A stretch of 41,043 bases of DNA from Legionellaceae bacterium. GTDB taxonomy: Bacteria; Pseudomonadota; Gammaproteobacteria; Legionellales; Legionellaceae. Under the pieces are notes generated by a model. That model did no database searches. It was given only the letters and a program-made list of their open reading frames with translations, and was not told where the DNA came from. The translations under genes were made by a program, and so were the position numbers. Below are positions 1,612-39,628 of the stretch, piece after piece. Positions within the stretch are counted from its first letter, which is position 1. Each line of letters starts with the position of its first letter. The DNA lies in contig JAUYSE010000200.1 of assembly GCA_030696465.1 (NCBI GenBank), forward strand, positions 1 through 41,043, written 5' to 3'.

Positions 1612-3117
1612 TTACAGTTTTGTTTTATCTGCTTGTTCCAACGTATAACTTACCGTTTGATGTAGCACACTCAGTAAAGGCTTAGGATATACCCCCATGC
1701 CTATTACCATCACGGCTAATAAACCATACGCCGTCAACTCAAACGAAGTTAAATCTTTTAGCTTTTGAATTTTCTTGTTTTCAATAGGGCCAAATATTAC
1801 TCGTTTCACCATCCACAAGGTATAGGCAGCGCCTAAAATAAGGGTCGTTGCGGCGACAAAAGCCACCCAAAAACCTGATTTGATACAGCCTAAAATAACC
1901 ATGAACTCGCCCACAAAGCCGGAGGTTCCCGGTAGGCCTGCATTTGCCATGGAAAACAAGATAAACAAGCTTGCAAACACCGGCATGGTCTGTACCACAC
2001 CACCAAAATCTTTTATTTCACGGGTATGTAAGCGGTCATATAAATACCCTACCCCAGCAAACATCCCGCTGGATACGAACGCGTGCGACACCATAACGAC
2101 GATGGCACCTTCTAATACTAATCCTGCATCGCGTAACAAACCATGCTCTGCTATCCAAAAAATAGCAAAACAACCCATGGTCACAAAACCCATATGCGAA
2201 ATAGAAGAATAGGCAATCAGGCGCTTCATATCTTTTTGTACTAAAGCGATTAACCCAATATAGACCACCGCAATCAATGATAAGGCTATCATGACCCCTG
2301 CGTATGCTCTACAGGCATCGGGCACAATGGGTAAAGCAAAACGAATGAATCCGTACGCCCCGAGCTTTAATAAAATAGCGGCTAAAATTACTGACCCGCC
2401 CGCAGGCGCCTCTGTATGCGCATCAGGAAGCCAGGTATGTACTGGAAACATCGGAATTTTAATGGCAAAACCGAAGAAAAATGCGATAAATATGAGGGTT
2501 TGTACCGGCATACTTAATTTTAACGCGTAGAAATCTTCTATTTTGAAAGAGCCTGACAAACTGCCCATATATAAAAACGCCGCCAACATCAGCACGGAGC
2601 CCAAAAAAGTAAAGATAAAGAACTTGATAGCCGCATACACGCGATTACTTGAGCCCCAAATCCCAATGACTAAATACATCGGGATAAGCGTCGCTTCCCA
2701 AAATAAATAGAACAAAATACTATCTAAGGCAGAGAATATCCCCACTAACAAGCCTTGCATTAGCAAAAAACAGGCCATATATTGTGCGACTTTCTCACGG
2801 ATGCTATTCCAGGTTGCGAGCACAGCCACTAGATTGGTAAATACCGATAAAACTATCAATACCAATGACAAACCATCGATACCTAAACTGTAACTAATGC
2901 CATATAGTGGGAACCAAGTATGGGACTCTAGATATTGCATACTGTAAGTACTGGAATCAAAACCACTCATCAGTGGAATACACAATGCTAAAGATAATAA
3001 TATTGAAAACAACGTTATTATGCGAGGCACTTGCGGATTTTTTTCTGAGCTACTGGCTAAAATAAAACCTGCAGAAAAAATCGGCAACCAAATGAGAATA
3101 CTTAATATGTGTTGCAT
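1612..3117 (-). CDS. nuoM: NADH-quinone oxidoreductase subunit M
   Basis: 501-aa antiporter-like membrane protein (FAIKIPMFPVHTWLPDAHTEAP) at the operon position between nuoL and nuoN. Confidence 0.95.
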   Translation of the reverse strand: MQHILSILIWLPIFSAGFILASSSEKNPQVPRIITLFSILLSLALCIPLMSGFDSSTYSMQYLESHTWFPLYGISYSLGIDGLSLVLIVLSVFTNLVAVLATWNSIREKVAQYMACFLLMQGLLVGIFSALDSILFYLFWEATLIPMYLVIGIWGSSNRVYAAIKFFIFTFLGSVLMLAAFLYMGSLSGSFKIEDFYALKLSMPVQTLIFIAFFFGFAIKIPMFPVHTWLPDAHTEAPAGGSVILAAILLKLGAYGFIRFALPIVPDACRAYAGVMIALSLIAVVYIGLIALVQKDMKRLIAYSSISHMGFVTMGCFAIFWIAEHGLLRDAGLVLEGAIVVMVSHAFVSSGMFAGVGYLYDRLHTREIKDFGGVVQTMPVFASLFILFSMANAGLPGTSGFVGEFMVILGCIKSGFWVAFVAATTLILGAAYTLWMVKRVIFGPIENKKIQKLKDLTSFELTAYGLLAVMVIGMGVYPKPLLSVLHQTVSYTLEQADKTKL

Positions 3118-3135: not shown

Positions 3136-3262
3136 CTATACTCTTCACACTTGCATTTTCGGCGTTGTTGCCAGTTCGCTCGCCATCGGTCATGGACTGC
3201 GAGTACACTCCCTCGGCTCGTTCACTGTCGCCTAGCCGAAAACTCAATTGCTGTGAGTATAT
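3136..3262. mobile_element. Family-1 MITE-like element, full-length intergenic copy (127 bp) between nuoL and nuoM
   Basis: Imperfect terminal inverted repeats: tatactcttcacacttgcattttcggc on the left, and the reverse complement of gccgaaaactcaattgctgtgagtata on the right. It is flanked by the direct repeat cttattggaa (3126-3135) / cttattagaa (3263-3272). Related copies are at 13585-13739, 15069-15153 and 14913-14955. Confidence 0.75.
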
Positions 3263-3272
3263 CTTATTAGAA

Positions 3273-5243
3273 TTACCTTAACACTAAGCAATAAAAAAAC
3301 AGAAATAAACCTGCTACCATCCCTGCCACATAATGATACAAATACCCAGACTGTAAGCCTCGACCCACTTTGGCCATCCGAGCAAATATTTTTGCTGTAC
3401 CATTCACCATCGCCCCATCGATAATCGAGCGATCACCTACCGTATAAAATATATTCCCTAATAAACGCGCGCCTCGCACAAACAGCACATCGTTCAACCG
3501 GTCAAAACCATACTTGCAGACTAATATTTTATAAATCCAAGAGAATTTTCGTGCTAATAAGCCTGGAAGCGTCAACACTTTTACATATCCGAGCCAAGCA
3601 AGCGCAATTCCGCTCAACGTCAACCAAAACACGGGATGCTTCCAGGCCATACAAGCGCTATACCAAGCAGAATGGGCTTCTTCGCCAATCACGGTCAGTA
3701 CTTGATGTGCCGGTAAAACAAACACACTGTTACCCAGCAAACTAGGCTCATTAAACAACATTGGGTAAAATAAAATATAGCCTAATATCACCGAAGGTAT
3801 CGCGAGAACCACTAAAGGTGCCCAAACCACCGCTGGAGACTCGTGCACATGGTTCCAGGTGGCTTTATCCATACGTGGCGTTCCGTGGAACGTTAAAAAT
3901 AAGGAGCGGAAAGAATACAAGGCCGTAACCATGGCGCCTAAAGCCACACAATAGTAAGCATAATGCGCTGCCGGCAAATGCGACGCTTGTGCTGCTTCGA
4001 TAATGGTGTCTTTAGAATAAAACCCAGCAAAAGGCGGTATTGCACATAAGGCAAGGTTACCAATCAAGAAGCAAATATAGGTAATGGGCATTTTACGCCA
4101 CAAGCCACCCATTTTTTTCATGTCTTGTTCGTGATGCATGCCCATAATCACTGAGCCTGCTGCCAAAAATAACAAGGCCTTAAAGCAAGCATGGGTCATC
4201 AGATGGAAGATCCCTGCACTGTATGCAGAGGCACCCATGGCAACCATCATGTATCCCAACTGAGATAAAGTAGAATAAGCAACCACACGCTTGATATCAT
4301 CCATCACCAATGCCAACAAACCTGTAAACAAGGCACCGGTTGCACCGATAATTAAGATACCGTTTAAAACATCTGGGCAGTACTCCATCACTGGAGATAG
4401 TCTGGCGACCATGAAAACCCCTGCGGTCACCATCGTTGCCGCATGAATCAAGGCCGAAATAGGCGTTGGACCTTCCATCGATTCTGGTAACCACACATGT
4501 AAAGGAATCTGCGCAGATTTACCCATTGCACCAACAAATAGCAACCAACAAATCAAACTTGCAGCACTTAAGCTCGTCGTCAACCAAGGCACGGTCATTG
4601 TAGACAATTGCGTTGCTTGTTGGAAAACCGTCGCATAATCTAAACTGCCAACCGTCGCTAGTAATAAGCCTATTCCTAAGATAAAGCCAAAATCCCCGAC
4701 TCGATTCACTAAAAACGCTTTCAAACTGCCTGCAAGTGCAGACTCTTTATGATACCAAAAACCGATGAGCAAATAAGAGACAAGACCCACGCCTTCCCAA
4801 CCAAAAAATAGCTGTAAGAAGTTATTCGCAGTCACTAACATCAACATCATAAAGGTAAATAAAGAAATATAACTGAAAAACCGTGCGTATCCGGGATCTT
4901 CATGCATATAGCCAATACTGTATATGTGTACTAACAAAGAAACGAAAGTAACCACTAGCATCATGATCACCGTTAAGTGATCCACTAAAAAGCCAATATG
5001 GAAGGCATAAGGGAAGACTTCGGCTCCACTTGCCCATGTATACCAATTCAGATCAATGGGAGGGTACGCATTCGTTAATACTTGTGATGCGACGACTATA
5101 GATAACAATAGAGAAGCTGCGACGCCAGCAATCGTTAAACTATGCGCGGTAACCGGCGCCATTCGTCGACACCCGAAACCAACCACCGTAGCGGTACACA
5201 AAGGGAGAATCACTGCAAGTAATGTCAATAATGCTATGCTCAC
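3273..5243 (-). CDS. nuoL: NADH-quinone oxidoreductase subunit L
   Basis: 656-aa antiporter-like subunit (GKSAQIPLHVWLPESMEGPTPISALIHAATMV) with a long C-terminal extension typical of NuoL. Confidence 0.95.
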   Translation of the reverse strand: MSIALLTLLAVILPLCTATVVGFGCRRMAPVTAHSLTIAGVAASLLLSIVVASQVLTNAYPPIDLNWYTWASGAEVFPYAFHIGFLVDHLTVIMMLVVTFVSLLVHIYSIGYMHEDPGYARFFSYISLFTFMMLMLVTANNFLQLFFGWEGVGLVSYLLIGFWYHKESALAGSLKAFLVNRVGDFGFILGIGLLLATVGSLDYATVFQQATQLSTMTVPWLTTSLSAASLICWLLFVGAMGKSAQIPLHVWLPESMEGPTPISALIHAATMVTAGVFMVARLSPVMEYCPDVLNGILIIGATGALFTGLLALVMDDIKRVVAYSTLSQLGYMMVAMGASAYSAGIFHLMTHACFKALLFLAAGSVIMGMHHEQDMKKMGGLWRKMPITYICFLIGNLALCAIPPFAGFYSKDTIIEAAQASHLPAAHYAYYCVALGAMVTALYSFRSLFLTFHGTPRMDKATWNHVHESPAVVWAPLVVLAIPSVILGYILFYPMLFNEPSLLGNSVFVLPAHQVLTVIGEEAHSAWYSACMAWKHPVFWLTLSGIALAWLGYVKVLTLPGLLARKFSWIYKILVCKYGFDRLNDVLFVRGARLLGNIFYTVGDRSIIDGAMVNGTAKIFARMAKVGRGLQSGYLYHYVAGMVAGLFLFFYCLVLR

Positions 5244-11948: not shown

Positions 11949-13202
11949 TTAGCGGTCTACTTCCCCAAACACAATATCTTGGCTGGCTAAAATAGCCACT
12001 GCGTCAGCCAACATATGTCCCTCAGACATCATGCTTAAACTAGAAAGATGTGCAAACCCTGGTGCCCGAATTTTTAAACGATAGGGTTTATTCGCGCCAT
12101 CTGAAACCATGTATATCCCGAACTCTCCTTTTGGAGCTTCCACCGCACGATACACTTCTCCCTCAGGCAGACAAAATCCCTCGGTAAATAATTTAAAGTG
12201 ATGGATTAAGGCTTCCATATCTTCTTTCATGACCGCACGTGATGGAGGACTCACTTTATGGGAGTCGACTTTAATCGGACCAGGATGTTTCCGCAACCAT
12301 TCGATACACTGTCGAATAATGCGATTTGACTGCCGCATTTCTTCCATACGCACTAAATAACGATCATAACAATCGCCATTTTTGCCCACGGGAATATCAA
12401 AATCTACTTCTGAGTACATTGCATAACTTTGTTTTTTACGCAAATCCCACTCTACACCAGAACCTCGGAGCATTGGGCCCGTAAAGCCCCATTGCAAAGC
12501 CTGCTCTGGAGAAACCACACCGATATCTACGGTGCGTTGTTTCCATATTCTATTATCGGTTAATAAGGTTTCATATTCATCGACACATTTTGGAAAACGT
12601 TCGGTAAACGCCCATAAAAAATCCAGTAAACCACCTTGTCGATCTTGATTGCGTTTATCGGTTTCACGTTCGGAGTGCCAGTGAGACGCTTTATATTGTG
12701 GCATGGTATCGGGTAAATCTCGAGCAACCCCACCTGGACGATAATAGGTCGCATGCATACGCGCACCCGAAACCGCCTCATAGCAATCAAACAAATCTTC
12801 GCGTTCGCGAAAACAATATAAAAACACCGTCATCGCACCAATATCTAAGGCAATCGCGCCCAACCATAACAAATGATTTAAAATACGGGTAACTTCATCA
12901 AACATCGTGCGAATGTATTGCGCGCGTATCGGAATATCTAAATCTAAAAAAGCCTCGATGGTTCGCACATAAGCATGTTCATTACACATCATTGATACAT
13001 AATCGAGACGATCCATATAACCAATATTGTGTAAATAAGGCTTGGTCTCTACCAACTTTTCGGTAGCGCGATGTAATAAGCCAATATGTGGATCCGCACG
13101 AACAATGGTTTCGCCTTCTAATTCTAATACTAAACGTAAAACACCATGGGCAGCCGGATGTTGAGGACCAAAATTTAAGGTATAATTTTTAATTTCTGTC
13201 AT
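11949..13202 (-). CDS. nuoD: NADH-quinone oxidoreductase subunit D
   Basis: 417 aa with an N-terminus ([16 protein letters not shown]) and C-terminus (IVFGEVDR) typical of NuoD/49-kDa subunit. It is a separate gene, not fused to nuoC. Confidence 0.96.
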
Positions 13203-14023
13203 GGCTTCTCTCCTGCTTCGTCGATATAACGACTATCATGACGAATCACTTTCGGCACAGTCACTCTTGGGACAATATCTACAGGTTCGTACACAACACG
13301 TGCCAACGTGGCATCATAACGCATTTCAACATAACCACTCACAGGAAAGTCTTTGCGAAAAGGATGGCCTATAAATCCGTAATCCGTCAAAATACGACGT
13401 AAATCAGGATGGTTGTCAAATAAAATACCAAATAAATCGAAGGCTTCACGCTCAAACCAATTAGCACCTGGCCAAATATCATGAACCGAAGGGATACACA
13501 AATTTGGTTCGTCGAAATATACTTTTACACGTAAGCGATAATTATGAACCGTAGACAATAAGTGATACACCACCGCAAACCGCGGCAACTTCTTCGCAAT
13601 TGAATGATCGGTGTTGTTGCAAGTGCGCTCGCCATCGGTCATGGACACAGAGCTCACTCCCTCGGCTTGCTTGCTTGCACTTTCAGCACTGTTATATGCT
13701 GCTGCTTCTTGCCGAAAATCCCATTGTTGGGAATGCATATCGACATATTCTTTAGGCGCAACACCACGGCAAAAACCTTGGGTTGTAGCTTCCTCAGTTT
13801 CCCAGTCGTATCTTCCATAGCTTAAATAATCAACGGCACATAGATCAATCAGTTGATCAAATGAAAATGTATCTCGCAAGCGCAACAAGGCAGCATGGAT
13901 GGTTGAAACCTCTAACACTAAAGTCAGCTCTCGATATGCCATCACTAACTCTTGAATATCGCTCGAAAATGCTGTGCGGATTTTTTTTTCTAGAGCGCTA
14001 AGCTTTTTATTTATCTGCGTCAT
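13199..14023 (-). CDS. nuoC: NADH-quinone oxidoreductase subunit C, 274 aa, carrying a roughly 45-residue in-frame insertion derived from a family-1 repeat
   Basis: Conserved NuoC blocks are present ([49 protein letters not shown]). I moved the start to the ATG at 14023, which is preceded by the AAGGAG RBS (gtaaggagaaaatagagATG). The track ORF start at 14143 would overlap nuoB by more than 100 nt. Confidence 0.9.
13585..13739. mobile_element. Family-1 MITE-like element copy embedded in frame in nuoC (boundaries +/- 5 bp)
   Basis: The core at 13610-13667 matches 3161-3218 at 50/58 nt by hand alignment. Degenerate ends (acttcttcgcaattgaatgatcgg and gccgaaaatcccattgttgggaatgcata) align to both terminal repeats of the intergenic copies. 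Confidence 0.7.
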
Positions 14024-14036
14024 CTCTATTTTCTCC

Positions 14037-14522
14037 TTACTCGCCAATATCGATGACCGATTTTCTTTGAATTTTATTTTGTAATTGAATGATGCCATAC
14101 AATAAAGCTTCTGCTGTCGGAGGACAGCCTGGTACATAAACATCTACCGGCACAATCCGATCACAACCACGCACTACAGAATAAGAATAATGATAATAGC
14201 CACCGCCATTGGCACAGGAACCCATAGAAATAACCCAGCGTGGTTCTGCCATTTGGTCATACACTTTTCGAAGGGCTGGTGCCATTTTATTACAGAGAGT
14301 CCCTGCCACAATCATGACATCCGATTGCCGCGGACTTGGTCTAAATATAATACCAAAACGATCTAAGTCGTAACGAGAAGCCCCTGTGTGCATCATTTCT
14401 ACCGCACAACAAGCTAAACCAAAAGTAACAGGCCACATAGAGCCTGTTCTCGCCCATCCCACTAGAGACTCTAGCGAGGTTGTTACAAAACCTTGCTGTT
14501 GAAGTTCTGCTGCATCAATCAT
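14037..14522 (-). CDS. nuoB: NADH-quinone oxidoreductase subunit B (N2 [4Fe-4S])
   Basis: 161 aa with [10 protein letters not shown] and [12 protein letters not shown] motifs. Confidence 0.96.
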
Positions 14523-14537
14523 GCTTTCCTCGTATAA

Positions 14538-14894
14538 TCAATCCCACTCCAGGGCACCACGTTTCCATTCATATATAAAACCAAGCACCAGCAATCCTAA
14601 AAAGAGCATCATTGCGCCAAAGGCAAAAACGCCTACTGAACGTAACACTAATGCCCACGGAAAAAAGAACGCTGTTTCTAAGTCAAAAATAATAAATAAA
14701 ATAGCCACTAAATAAAAACGCACATCAAATGGTAAACGCGCATCCCCGAACTCAGGAAAACCGCACTCGTAAGGTGAGTTTTTTTCGGCATCTGGCGCAT
14801 GCTTTCCGAGCAAACCACCAACACCTAATAATAACAATCCAAACACTAACGCAACAAAAATAAAAATTAATATAGGTAAGTATTGTCCTAGCAT
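14538..14894 (-). CDS. nuoA: NADH-quinone oxidoreductase subunit A
   Basis: 118-aa protein with 3 TM segments ([17 protein letters not shown]); first gene of the operon. Confidence 0.95.
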
Positions 14895-14976: not shown

Positions 14977-15061
14977 TGGTGCCGAAAGCCGGACTCGAAC
15001 CGGCACGGCTTACGCCACCGCCCCCTCAAGACGGCGTGTCTACCAATTCCACCACTTCGGC
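14977..15061 (-). tRNA. leuU: tRNA-Leu, anticodon GAG, 85 nt with long variable arm and encoded CCA
   Basis: The reverse complement reads GCCGAAGTGGTGGAATTGGTAGACACGCCGTCTTGAGGGGGCGGTGGCGTAAGCCGTGCCGGTTCGAGTCCGGCTTTCGGCACCA. It has an acceptor stem GCCGAAG/CTTTCGGC, anticodon stem CCGTC/GGCGG with loop TTGAGGG, and a T-arm GGTTCGAGTCC. The position downstream of secG matches E. coli secG-leuU. Confidence 0.93.
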
Positions 15062-15068
15062 ACAGAAA

Positions 15069-15153
15069 CTACACTCTTCACACTTGAGTTTTCGGCGTTG
15101 TTGCAACCTCTCTCGCTTGCGCCTAGTCGAAAATTCAATTGCTGTGAGTATAC
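15069..15153. mobile_element. Family-1 MITE-like element, short variant (85 bp, internal deletion of about 42 nt) between secG and tRNA-Leu
   Basis: It runs from ctacactcttcacacttgagttttcggcgttgttgca to cgcctagtcgaaaattcaattgctgtgagtatac. Both termini are near-identical to the 3136-3262 copy, and the ends are mutually inverted. Confidence 0.75.
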
Positions 15154-15159
15154 TTTTTA

Positions 15160-15549
15160 CTACTTCGGCTCAGGAAGCTCTTCTTGGGCCGATTTTGCTC
15201 CCTTACTCACAGGCACCGGAATATCATTTGAAGGGAGGGTTACACTCCGATGCACGGGCACATCCGACGACGGTACTGTGCCTGATTTTGGGACCACTTG
15301 CAACTGAGCGTGTTGATACTCAGTTGACACTATATAAGACAAAGTCAGACTGGTAATAAAAAACGCCAATCCAAGCCCTGCCGTCATTCGAAATAAAAAT
15401 CCACCAGCCCCTTGGCTGCCAAAAACGGTATTAGAGGCGCCTGATCCAAATGAGGCGCCAATATCAGCACCCTTTCCATATTGAATTAACACCAGGCCCA
15501 CCAACATAAGTGCAACAAACATATGCACCATTAATACTATTTGATACAT
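15160..15549 (-). CDS. secG: Preprotein translocase subunit SecG
   Basis: 129 aa with two TM segments and the Gly-rich linker GKGADIGASFGSGASNTVFGSQGAGGFL, followed by a Pro-rich tail. Its start overlaps the tpiA stop by 13 nt. Confidence 0.9.
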   Translation of the reverse strand: MYQIVLMVHMFVALMLVGLVLIQYGKGADIGASFGSGASNTVFGSQGAGGFLFRMTAGLGLAFFITSLTLSYIVSTEYQHAQLQVVPKSGTVPSSDVPVHRSVTLPSNDIPVPVSKGAKSAQEELPEPK

Positions 15550-16360: not shown

Positions 16361-16428
16361 CAGCCATTCCCGCCCAACCCAAAAACTTTGCCGACAAGAC
16401 TTTTCGAATAAAGGGCTTCGGATAGATC
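16361..16428. repeat. Family-2 element, truncated copy (left half only) in the tpiA/rph divergent intergenic region
   Basis: cagccattcccgcccaacccaaaaactttgccgacaagacttttcgaataaagggcttcggatag aligns to the left halves of the 180-bp copies at 26074 and 39449. No matching right arm follows. Confidence 0.6.
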
Positions 16429-26073: not shown

Positions 26074-26253
26074 CAGCTATTCCCGCTCAACCCCAAAACG
26101 CTGCCAACAAGGCTTATTGAATAAAGGGCTTTCGTAGACCTTCACCGCGCAAGGACGCGCGGTGAGAGCGTCAGGATGACTTTATGCGTGTTTACGAAAG
26201 CCCTTTATTCAATAAGCCTTGGTACCACTAATATAATCAGGCGGGAATTCCTT
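26074..26253. mobile_element. Family-2 MITE-like element, full copy (180 bp) in the psd/aroQ divergent intergenic region
   Basis: Outer inverted repeat attcccgc (26079-26086) / gcgggaat (26241-26248). Perfect 29-bp inner arms at 26108-26136 and 26193-26221. Central 9-bp hairpin tcaccgcgc/gcgcggtga. Flanked by the 9-bp direct repeat gacaaaaat (26065-26073 and 26254-26262). Confidence 0.8.
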
Positions 26254-26329
26254 GACAAAAATCAGCACCTATAGACAGAATTCGTAATATCAGGCAAAAT
26301 CCCTCATCCTTTTTTTATGGTCATAATAT

Positions 26330-39448: not shown

Positions 39449-39628
39449 CAGCCATTCCCGCCCAACCCCAAAACGCTGCCAAACAAGGCATCCGATAAAA
39501 TTCTTTTCGCAAACCCTCACAACGCATGGACGCGCTGTGAGAGCATCAGGATGATTTTATGCGTGTTTGTGAAAAGAATTTTATCGGAATGCCTTGTTAC
39601 CACTGATATAATTAGGCGGGAATTCCTG
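39449..39628. mobile_element. Family-2 MITE-like element, full copy (180 bp) in the divergent intergenic region between the 181-aa ORF and the 185-aa secreted-protein gene
   Basis: It has the same outer ends as the 26074 copy (cagccattcccgcc ... ggcgggaattcct) and the same central block. It is flanked by the 9-bp direct repeat tagatttct (39440-39448 and 39629-39637). Its inner arms, about 27 bp, are self-complementary but differ in sequence from copy 1. Confidence 0.8.

Follow-up and report, generated by a model that had tools for sequence, protein, structure and literature searches.

In the present study, we analysed a stretch of 41,043 nt from Legionellaceae bacterium (GenBank assembly GCA_030696465.1, contig JAUYSE010000200.1; the whole stretch is referred to below as the window) with respect to its nuoC gene, which encodes a subunit of respiratory complex I and contains, in frame, a block resembling a repeat that is intergenic elsewhere in the window. 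Results of our analysis make it very probable that a TA-targeting palindromic repeat, resembling the enterobacterial repetitive intergenic consensus (ERIC) elements, inserted in frame into a loop of nuoC and then aged there. The gene and the parts of the insert are located as follows.

13199-14023, minus strand: nuoC, an intact open reading frame (ORF) of 274 aa with a Pfam Complex1_30kDa match.
13586-13738, canonical orientation plus, read as protein on the minus strand: decayed, essentially full-length ERIC-like repeat, delimited by nucleotide and peptide profiles.
13675-13708, minus strand: region with 27 extra nt (9 codons, approximately EAAAYNSAE), delimited by nucleotide, peptide and pairwise alignments.

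An earlier note made from the sequence alone had proposed that about 150 bp of nuoC are a copy of the window's intergenic repeat, with both ends present in a degenerate form. A nucleotide profile built from 12 copies of other genomes, with zero window sequence, bears out both statements: with nhmmer, positions 13591-13732 match model positions 6-120 of 125 (45.2 bits, E=2.5e-13), and the similarity, on the significance of which the proposal depended, is upheld by this independent profile. The footprint of the element in nuoC comprises 51 codons (NuoC M96-L146, the peptide ending with DHSIAKKL), and the block matches a peptide profile derived from 59 database segments with E=1e-8. Within the window, 50 of the 58 nt of 13610-13667 are identical to those of 3161-3218, exactly as had been counted by hand; a repeat finder gives 83% identity over 77 nt for 13591-13667 and 3142-3218 and links both regions also to 15067-15152. 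Over the full length, the nuoC copy and the intergenic copy at 3137-3261 are identical at 95 of 125 aligned positions (76%), the former having 27 extra internal nt. The motif TCGGCGTTGTTGCMA, with two mismatches at most, occurs three times, as compared to 0.10 occurrences expected from shuffles.

The closest relatives of the window NuoC in a homologue search are Legionella NuoC proteins (best identity 57%). In an alignment with 11 Legionellales homologues, all conserved NuoC blocks are retained, and a block of about 46 aa between GF(S/C)RG (here GFCRGV) and the next conserved block is present in the window protein only, which is the lineage-specific pattern that the orthologue alignment suggested in the earlier note could reveal. 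The aligned proteins, as well as the best 120 of 8000 NuoC homologues, are 223-235 aa long, in agreement with the view that the insert lies in the linker following GF(S/C)RG and that a NuoC of 274 aa is unusually long; none of these best 120 of 8000 contains the block. Translation of the ORF confirms that nuoC reads through the repeat without a stop or frameshift. The match to the external profile and the absence of the block from homologues together indicate the insertion of a dispersed element into nuoC, and not an ancestral NuoC loop that was copied elsewhere.

The copy in nuoC appears to be old, as judged from its decay alone in this one genome. Its ends are degenerate (ATG CAT TCC CAA CAA TGG at one and GCG AAG AAG TTG at the other), and its palindrome is largely lost, the RNA fold having z=-1.5 only, because the terminal stem is gone. 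In the nucleotide alignment, the 27-nt gain follows model position 88 as an insert state, and in the peptide alignment it corresponds to 9 residues after FRQ, its exact placement within 13675-13708 being ambiguous. As it is a multiple of three, it probably postdates the insertion.

The repeat to which the nuoC copy belongs is a palindrome over its whole length of 125 nt, with TA termini and inverted ends of about 27 nt. Full-length copies start with TATACTCTTCGCACTTGAATTTTCGGC and finish with GCCGAAAAYYCAATTGCTGTGAGTATA, and the termini TATACTC...GAGTATA are present in nearly all copies; some subfamilies are 126 nt long. Young copies fold end to end as one hairpin (z=-9.3 for the copy in a purD gene, encoding PurD, and z=-8.2 for that in a PyrC-like gene). 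The element has the general features of the bacterial transposable elements of miniature, inverted-repeat type (MITEs), namely, a size below 200 bp, no transposase-coding capacity, terminal inverted repeats, and dispersed copies in several genomes; as to the target-site duplication that also characterises this class, a duplication of TA can be deduced, and mobilisation would be by a putative transposase. A scan of one genome per species with a degenerate pattern of the element ends revealed copies in Legionellaceae metagenome-assembled genomes (MAGs), in several unnamed Pseudomonadota/Gammaproteobacteria MAGs, and in Rickettsiella sp. Opha. A scan of metagenomes provided 13 further loci, and a pattern scan of viral contigs retrieved no copies. 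Hosts that can be named are Legionellaceae MAGs, Rickettsiella sp. and Ca. Rickettsiella viridis, with the taxonomy of several MAG hosts taken as given in the records; examples of young copies are that in PurD of the ADI_DC_SW MAG and that in the PyrC-like gene of Rickettsiella sp. Opha. A search of Rfam at gathering thresholds returned tRNA only and no model for the element, the element peptides matched no Pfam or NCBIfam family at E<=10 (DUF1658 included), and in the literature on palindromic, MITE or ERIC elements of Legionella, Rickettsiella and Legionellales we found no description of the family. A TA-flanked palindromic MITE that is translated inside genes is of a known kind; what seems to be new is the family itself, the breadth of its occurrence within genes, and its connection with ERIC.

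The length of the element is of importance for its compatibility with coding sequences. In one locus (L019), a 125-nt copy lies inside an intact PurD, in which Pfam domains GARS_N and GARS_A precede the element and GARS_C follows it; in another (L011), a 125-nt copy lies inside an intact ORF of a PyrC-like amidohydrolase. In both proteins, an L codon is followed by exactly 41 element residues, YSQQ...AKSI. Since these ORFs are intact with a footprint of 125 nt, 2 nt must have pre-existed at the site, which gives a net gain of 123 nt, i.e., 41 codons. Where copies are arranged in tandem (loci L020 and L023), the two neighbours have just one TA in common at their junction, GAGTA-TA-TACTC. From these junctions and from the frame arithmetic we infer that the TA target is duplicated upon insertion. 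Duplication of a TA target has been reported for ERIC (PMC2759123), as well as for Correia and RUP elements (PMC2229807). The first codon of the element reading is NTA, with N provided by the host, and the last one is ATA; among database proteins, Y is preceded by one of I, L and V in 37 of 57 cases, and AKS is followed by I in 65 of 73. The tandem copies are arranged head to tail (L020 10940-11189 and L023 1673-1850), each being a subfamily copy of 126 nt.

In most copies, two sense frames and one antisense frame are open, and it is the latter, (L/I/V)YSQQ...AENSSAKSI, that is used by all interior in-gene copies retrieved by the nucleotide search. These are four clear cases, which is a small sample: the PyrC-like protein, PurD, an ORF of locus L032 with 101 and 265 flanking residues, and the window NuoC. 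The peptide encoded in this frame is hydrophilic and near-neutral (grand average of hydropathy, GRAVY, of -0.6 to -1.0; pI 4.7-6.8); both sense frames encode peptides that are basic, Cys-rich or hydrophobic. When the antisense peptide was used for an exhaustive profile search of 1.84 billion representative proteins, 97 of these were identified at E<=1e-3. Among them, 94 have a match of at least 30 bits, with the copy constituting a short ORF in 65 cases and located in the protein interior in 17, at the N terminus in 9, and at the C terminus in 3. This search cannot gauge frame bias, since its query was the antisense frame only. It was needed for the recovery of in-gene copies, as a word-indexed protein search with the peptide profile returned only 7 short ORFs.

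Hosts of interior copies include DprA, TilS (within the PP-loop domain), HemC, TsaB, a MobA-like transferase, a ResB-like protein, an EAL-HDOD protein, a methyltransferase, an ankyrin protein, and an RHS protein, while in RecX the copy is located near the C terminus. DprA, TilS, HemC and a hypothetical protein with in-frame copies of the window-type subfamily are encoded by one Legionellaceae MAG (locus tags Q8R79_; proteins P0136, P0138, P0156 and P0159, NCBI MDP3559278, MDP3559993, MDP3558976 and MDP3558907), and the peptide of these copies is nearly identical to that of the window's intergenic copy. The HemC host contains one full copy and a partial second one, and its insert separates two matched stretches that are three residues apart in solved structures; PDB alignments give approximate insert lengths of 43 aa for PurD and 59 aa for HemC. 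The earlier suggestion that the family tolerates exonisation is thus extended by copies in the same strand and frame in PurD, the PyrC-like protein, DprA, TilS, HemC and others, and the whole family, across unrelated hosts, proves to be characterised by tolerance of translation.

Certain long metagenomic ORFs, P0142 (681 aa), P0144 (741 aa), P0217 (361 aa) and P0131 (383 aa), contain 2-5 tandem diverged element peptides of the type IDSSSLALQQGA...NAKSL. Stretches of these proteins may derive from repeat arrays.

The course of events that would explain the window nuoC can be outlined as follows. A non-autonomous TA-targeting palindromic repeat would have entered a surface-loop codon of nuoC, in the hairpin loop that joins strands AVDY and PRF.VVYHLLS. 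With one TA of the pair present at the target beforehand, the gene would have grown by 123 nt (41 codons) and stayed in frame. As the element's antisense strand would be the coding one and the target TA would occupy codon positions 2-3, only the hydrophilic stop-free frame would be read, i.e., the NTA-codon residue followed by YSQQ.FRQGA...AENSSAKSI. The extra peptide, which we suppose to be neutral, would be tolerated because the length of this loop already varies widely among complex I enzymes: the distance from the AVD strand to RF.VVYHLLS is about 5 residues in solved NuoC/NDUFS3 chains (Paracoccus 8qby_C), and the Legionellales linker is much longer. Later, the terminal repeats and the hairpin would have decayed, and the addition of 27 nt (9 codons) would have led to the 50 extra residues of today. 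As the mobilising transposase, an enzyme of the IS630/Tc1-mariner type would be the first candidate, with its gene expected to be flanked by TACTCTTCGCACTTGAATTTTCGGC.

The loop carrying the insert is most likely a solvent-exposed hairpin, judging by the loop-length variation in working enzymes. Legionellales NuoC proteins have in common, at the same hairpin, an extra linker YL.YG.YDWETE.AT..GF.RG (window 13739-13830, residues ~66-95).

Several observations weigh against the insertion of a TA-targeting repeat as outlined here, or against parts of it. The 126-nt subfamilies imply that frame preservation is not universal in the family. No partner transposase was found, the candidate examined, an ORF of locus L029, having been compared to no family models. 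The closest homologue is only 57% identical to the window NuoC, so that neither the precise target nor the moment of insertion can be read directly. When the 50 extra residues are subtracted, the remaining linker (APKEYVD and one residue) is about 4 residues shorter than that of homologues, so either some host sequence was lost or the element edges are off by a few codons. The translation of the modified NuoC can only be presumed, and the AlphaFold2 model of NuoC (12-sequence alignment) is too poor to place the loop (mean predicted local distance difference test score, pLDDT, of 57), for which reason surface exposure is argued from loop-length variation only.

In locus L029, half of the element is followed by an ORF of 224 aa. 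We considered this arrangement as an autonomous insertion sequence (IS) and rejected it, as the ORF is lipoprotein-like, with a segment resembling a signal peptide and no sign of a transposase. At 3374-4048 of this locus, the half element provides the start codon and the first ~20 residues (MFYSSHLSFRRRSRSTRNPHVC, in a sense frame) of the lipoprotein-like ORF, which comes after a 270-aa ORF; either the N-terminal extension is real or the start is miscalled.

Among other explanations, it is improbable, though the least so of those considered, that the insert was domesticated, that is, that the loop is kept for a new property of NuoC or complex I (interaction, assembly or regulation) and is not neutral. 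It could be argued in its favour that the insert has been kept open for long and was even enlarged by 9 codons in frame, and that it is still strongly hydrophilic (GRAVY -1.0). However, an open frame is needed anyway for the translation of the downstream NuoC domain, the hosts of the family are unrelated enzymes, and the block occurs in no other NuoC among the best 120 of 8000 homologues. Moreover, the family peptide is best conserved where the terminal inverted repeats are translated, so its conservation follows a constraint at the DNA level.

The remaining evidence concerns the condition of nuoC itself and of the genes around it, which are located on the minus strand, as is the whole nuo operon. 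Its first genes other than nuoC, identified with NCBIfam, are the following.

14538-14894, minus strand: nuoA.
14037-14522, minus strand: nuoB.
11949-13202, minus strand: nuoD.

Ten subunits (NuoA, B, C, D, E, F, G, H, L and M) are intact according to NCBIfam, nine of them besides NuoC; nuoI, nuoJ, nuoK and nuoN were assigned from ORF position and size only, and the nuoA-N operon is apparently complete. NuoC passes the NCBIfam model NF004730 (238.5 bits, cut-off 193). Its score against the best equivalog, NF004732, is below the cut-off (251 vs. 376 bits), and the match is split into two stretches, in both respects because of the insert. The 3' end of nuoC overlaps the start of nuoD at 13199-13202.

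These data bear on the possibility, slightly more doubtful than domestication, that the nuoC with its real insert is non-functional or redundant, because it is decaying in a reduced intracellular genome or because a second nuo operon stands in for it. The visible part of the genome comprises 41 kb only, one Legionella NuoC match is named 'subunit C 1', which hints at paralogues in the order, and the low NF004732 score could also be read in this way. Against this, a dead gene would have collected stops or frameshifts, whereas the ORF of 274 codons has stayed intact around an old insert; the length of the later gain is divisible by three, no conserved block is lost, the overlap with nuoD is the usual coupled arrangement, NuoC passes NF004730, and the nine other nuo genes examined score as intact. 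Indirectly, the frame open despite the age of the insert, the gain by a multiple of three, the preserved blocks and nuoD overlap, and the intact state of the other nine genes indicate that nuoC is alive.

The two remaining explanations have practically no credibility. A reversed direction, with the block as an ancestral NuoC loop and the intergenic 'copies' as nuoC fragments, would fit the fact that the window copies are all within or next to the nuo operon in the same orientation, but not the occurrence of the element, with terminal inverted repeats and intact hairpins, in many unrelated contexts of other genera, nor the state of the nuoC copy, in which decay has advanced further than in the other two, nor the lack of the block in the best 120 of 8000 homologues. 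Repeats may cause misjoins in metagenomes, but a chimera that put the copy into nuoC is contradicted by nuoC sequence on both flanks, in frame, and by the uniqueness of the copy (76% identity to the nearest window copy and a private 27-nt gain), which shows that it is no collapsed or borrowed read of another copy. The in-frame insertion of the repeat into nuoC thus remains the explanation that we prefer.

Besides the nuoC copy, the window contains two further copies of the element, three in total; a six-frame peptide search added none.

3137-3261, plus strand: full-length 125-nt copy, matching the profile at model positions 1-125 (91 bits, E=1.7e-27).
15069-15153, plus strand: copy of about 85 nt that has lost internal sequence and retains both ends, identified by two half matches.

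The first of these takes up the greater part of the 155 nt that separate the nuoL stop at 3273 from the nuoM start at 3117, and, since it lies inside this spacer, it is presumably transcribed within the nuo mRNA. As had been noticed before, it is open (3137-3262) in the same frame as the nuoC copy. Its hairpin has z=-3.5 on the mRNA-sense strand and could, inside a polycistronic mRNA, influence processing or stability. The half matches of the second copy, 15071-15116 and 15115-15152, correspond to model positions 2-47 and 88-125 (E ~1e-7 each); this copy fills most of the 98-nt spacer between the secG stop at 15160 and tRNA-Leu at 14977-15061, and its hairpin has z=-4.3. The nuo operon contains or adjoins each of the three window copies, and their orientation is the same.

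A second, unrelated repeat family of about 185 nt is also present in the window (26074-26255, 39449-39630 and 16361-16418). It has inverted ends CAGCCATTCCCGCC ... GGCGGGAATTCCT and a long internal hairpin, the 32-nt arms of which show 97% complementarity. In its 3' part, it resembles an outward-facing promoter (GCCTTG..TACCACTNATATAAT), and each full copy is located about 75 nt upstream of a plus-strand ORF.

Comparison of the element with known repeats of similar architecture indicates that its detectable relative is ERIC/IRU (RU-1). Both are imperfect palindromes over the whole length (125 nt here vs. 127 bp in ERIC) with termini TATACTC...GAGTATA and 5'-TA-3' ends, both occur in transcribed spacers, and both contain an open frame of about 42 aa that is able to fuse to host ORFs (for ERIC, see PMC2759123). 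The family consensus is 64-65% identical end to end to the published RU-1 and SeRU-1 sequences (PMC2759123), as compared to 51-54% in the other orientation. The global alignment score with ERIC is 33, while shuffles score -12.8 +/- 5.4, or 1.7 +/- 5.2 if the terminal 8 nt are fixed. An E. coli ERIC copy aligns with the Legionellales profile at model positions 2-124 with 14.7 bits; in a 50-kb E. coli control, the single ERIC copy is the sole profile match (E=8e-4), the next scores being 3.4 bits. With a single ERIC sequence as a query against 302 kb of loci, the top 24 matches are all full-length copies of the family. Profile scores of the similarity to ERIC are low (11.6-16.6 bits), and the family consensus has no blastn match in 5,426 E. 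coli genomes. As profile and global alignments are significant while blastn detects nothing, comparison at the sequence level indicates that the family is a remote relative of ERIC, and not ERIC in the strict sense.

The two also differ in several respects. The hosts of the element are Legionellales, whereas those of ERIC are Enterobacteriaceae and their relatives, as well as Vibrio. The antisense frame, open in the element, is closed by TAA in the E. coli ERIC copy examined (L033), and the published ERIC open frames are on the strand opposite to the frame used here (PMC2759123). After subtraction of the 2-nt target, the ERIC length gives 125 nt (127 - 2), which is not a multiple of three, in contrast to 123 nt (125 - 2) of the element. 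In the clearest ERIC fusion reported, the element constitutes residues 463-496 of an amidase of 496 aa (PMC2759123); the difference in length may be the reason why that fusion is terminal while the insertions described here are interior. As regards the possible role of such repeats in transcripts, the ERIC hairpin in Yersinia reportedly acts as a processing or stabilising site.

A link to the QMITE families of Coxiella burnetii, cautiously raised in the earlier note, is not supported. A likeness exists, as these are MITEs of the same order, Legionellales, and some QMITE copies overlap or extend ORFs (PMC5896051). However, QMITE1 elements are 300-400 bp long, with 2-3-nt direct repeats and basic DUF1658-type peptides, and QMITE2 elements are 150-190 bp long, with variable direct repeats of 7-11 nt and a GTAG repetitive extragenic palindromic (REP) core targeted by IS1111 (PMC5896051); the main text of that paper does not mention nuoC. 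With its 125 nt, TA ends and an acidic to neutral peptide, the element fits the published features of neither family. Correia/NEMIS elements of Neisseria and RUP of pneumococcus are small MITEs as well, flanked by TA, with inverted repeats at their termini and a duplicated TA target; in its 107-bp form, Correia contains open frames fused to ORFs, and RUP is linked to a transposase of the IS630 family (PMC2229807). Their sequences and hosts are unrelated to those of the element.

In its behaviour, the element is most reminiscent of the Rickettsia palindromic elements (RPE), palindromic repeats of 105-150 bp that occur in frame in many unrelated housekeeping genes of an intracellular bacterium, each family having a conserved element peptide and the insertions being apparently tolerated in proteins (PMC10969869, PMC2229807). 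The copies in one frame in NuoC, PurD, the PyrC-like protein, DprA, TilS, HemC, TsaB, RecX and the ResB-like protein conform to this behaviour. The TA termini are regular in the element and only occasional in RPE (PMC2229807). No sequence relationship was detected with the use of Pfam and NCBIfam, the host order and class differ, and no host of the element is a Rickettsia. NCBIfam includes TIGRFAM models of RPE domains.

We lean towards the view that the element represents a previously undescribed, Legionellales-wide branch of the ERIC superfamily with RPE-like behaviour, in which a 41-codon footprint and a hydrophilic antisense frame have allowed repeated incorporation into the interiors of housekeeping proteins. 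The capture of palindromic repeats by conserved proteins has so far been treated largely as a curiosity of Rickettsia, with the ERIC cases being terminal or doubtful. The window provides an old, still-open insertion in a core subunit of complex I, and the family did likewise in many essential enzymes of bacteria related to Legionella and Coxiella, which makes it a second natural system for studying how proteins absorb 40-50 random residues. It also suggests a rule for in-gene MITEs: the footprint minus the target duplication should be a multiple of three, and one open frame should be hydrophilic. From the practical point of view, the element peptide inflates the counts of 'hypothetical proteins' and can lower the scores of family models, as in the case of NuoC, rescued only by NF004730. 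The extension of the ERIC lineage to another gammaproteobacterial order may aid in finding its transposase. If our view is correct, 'protein-coding palindromes' exist independently in a second case beyond Rickettsia, one that is tied to the mechanistically unexplained ERIC elements.

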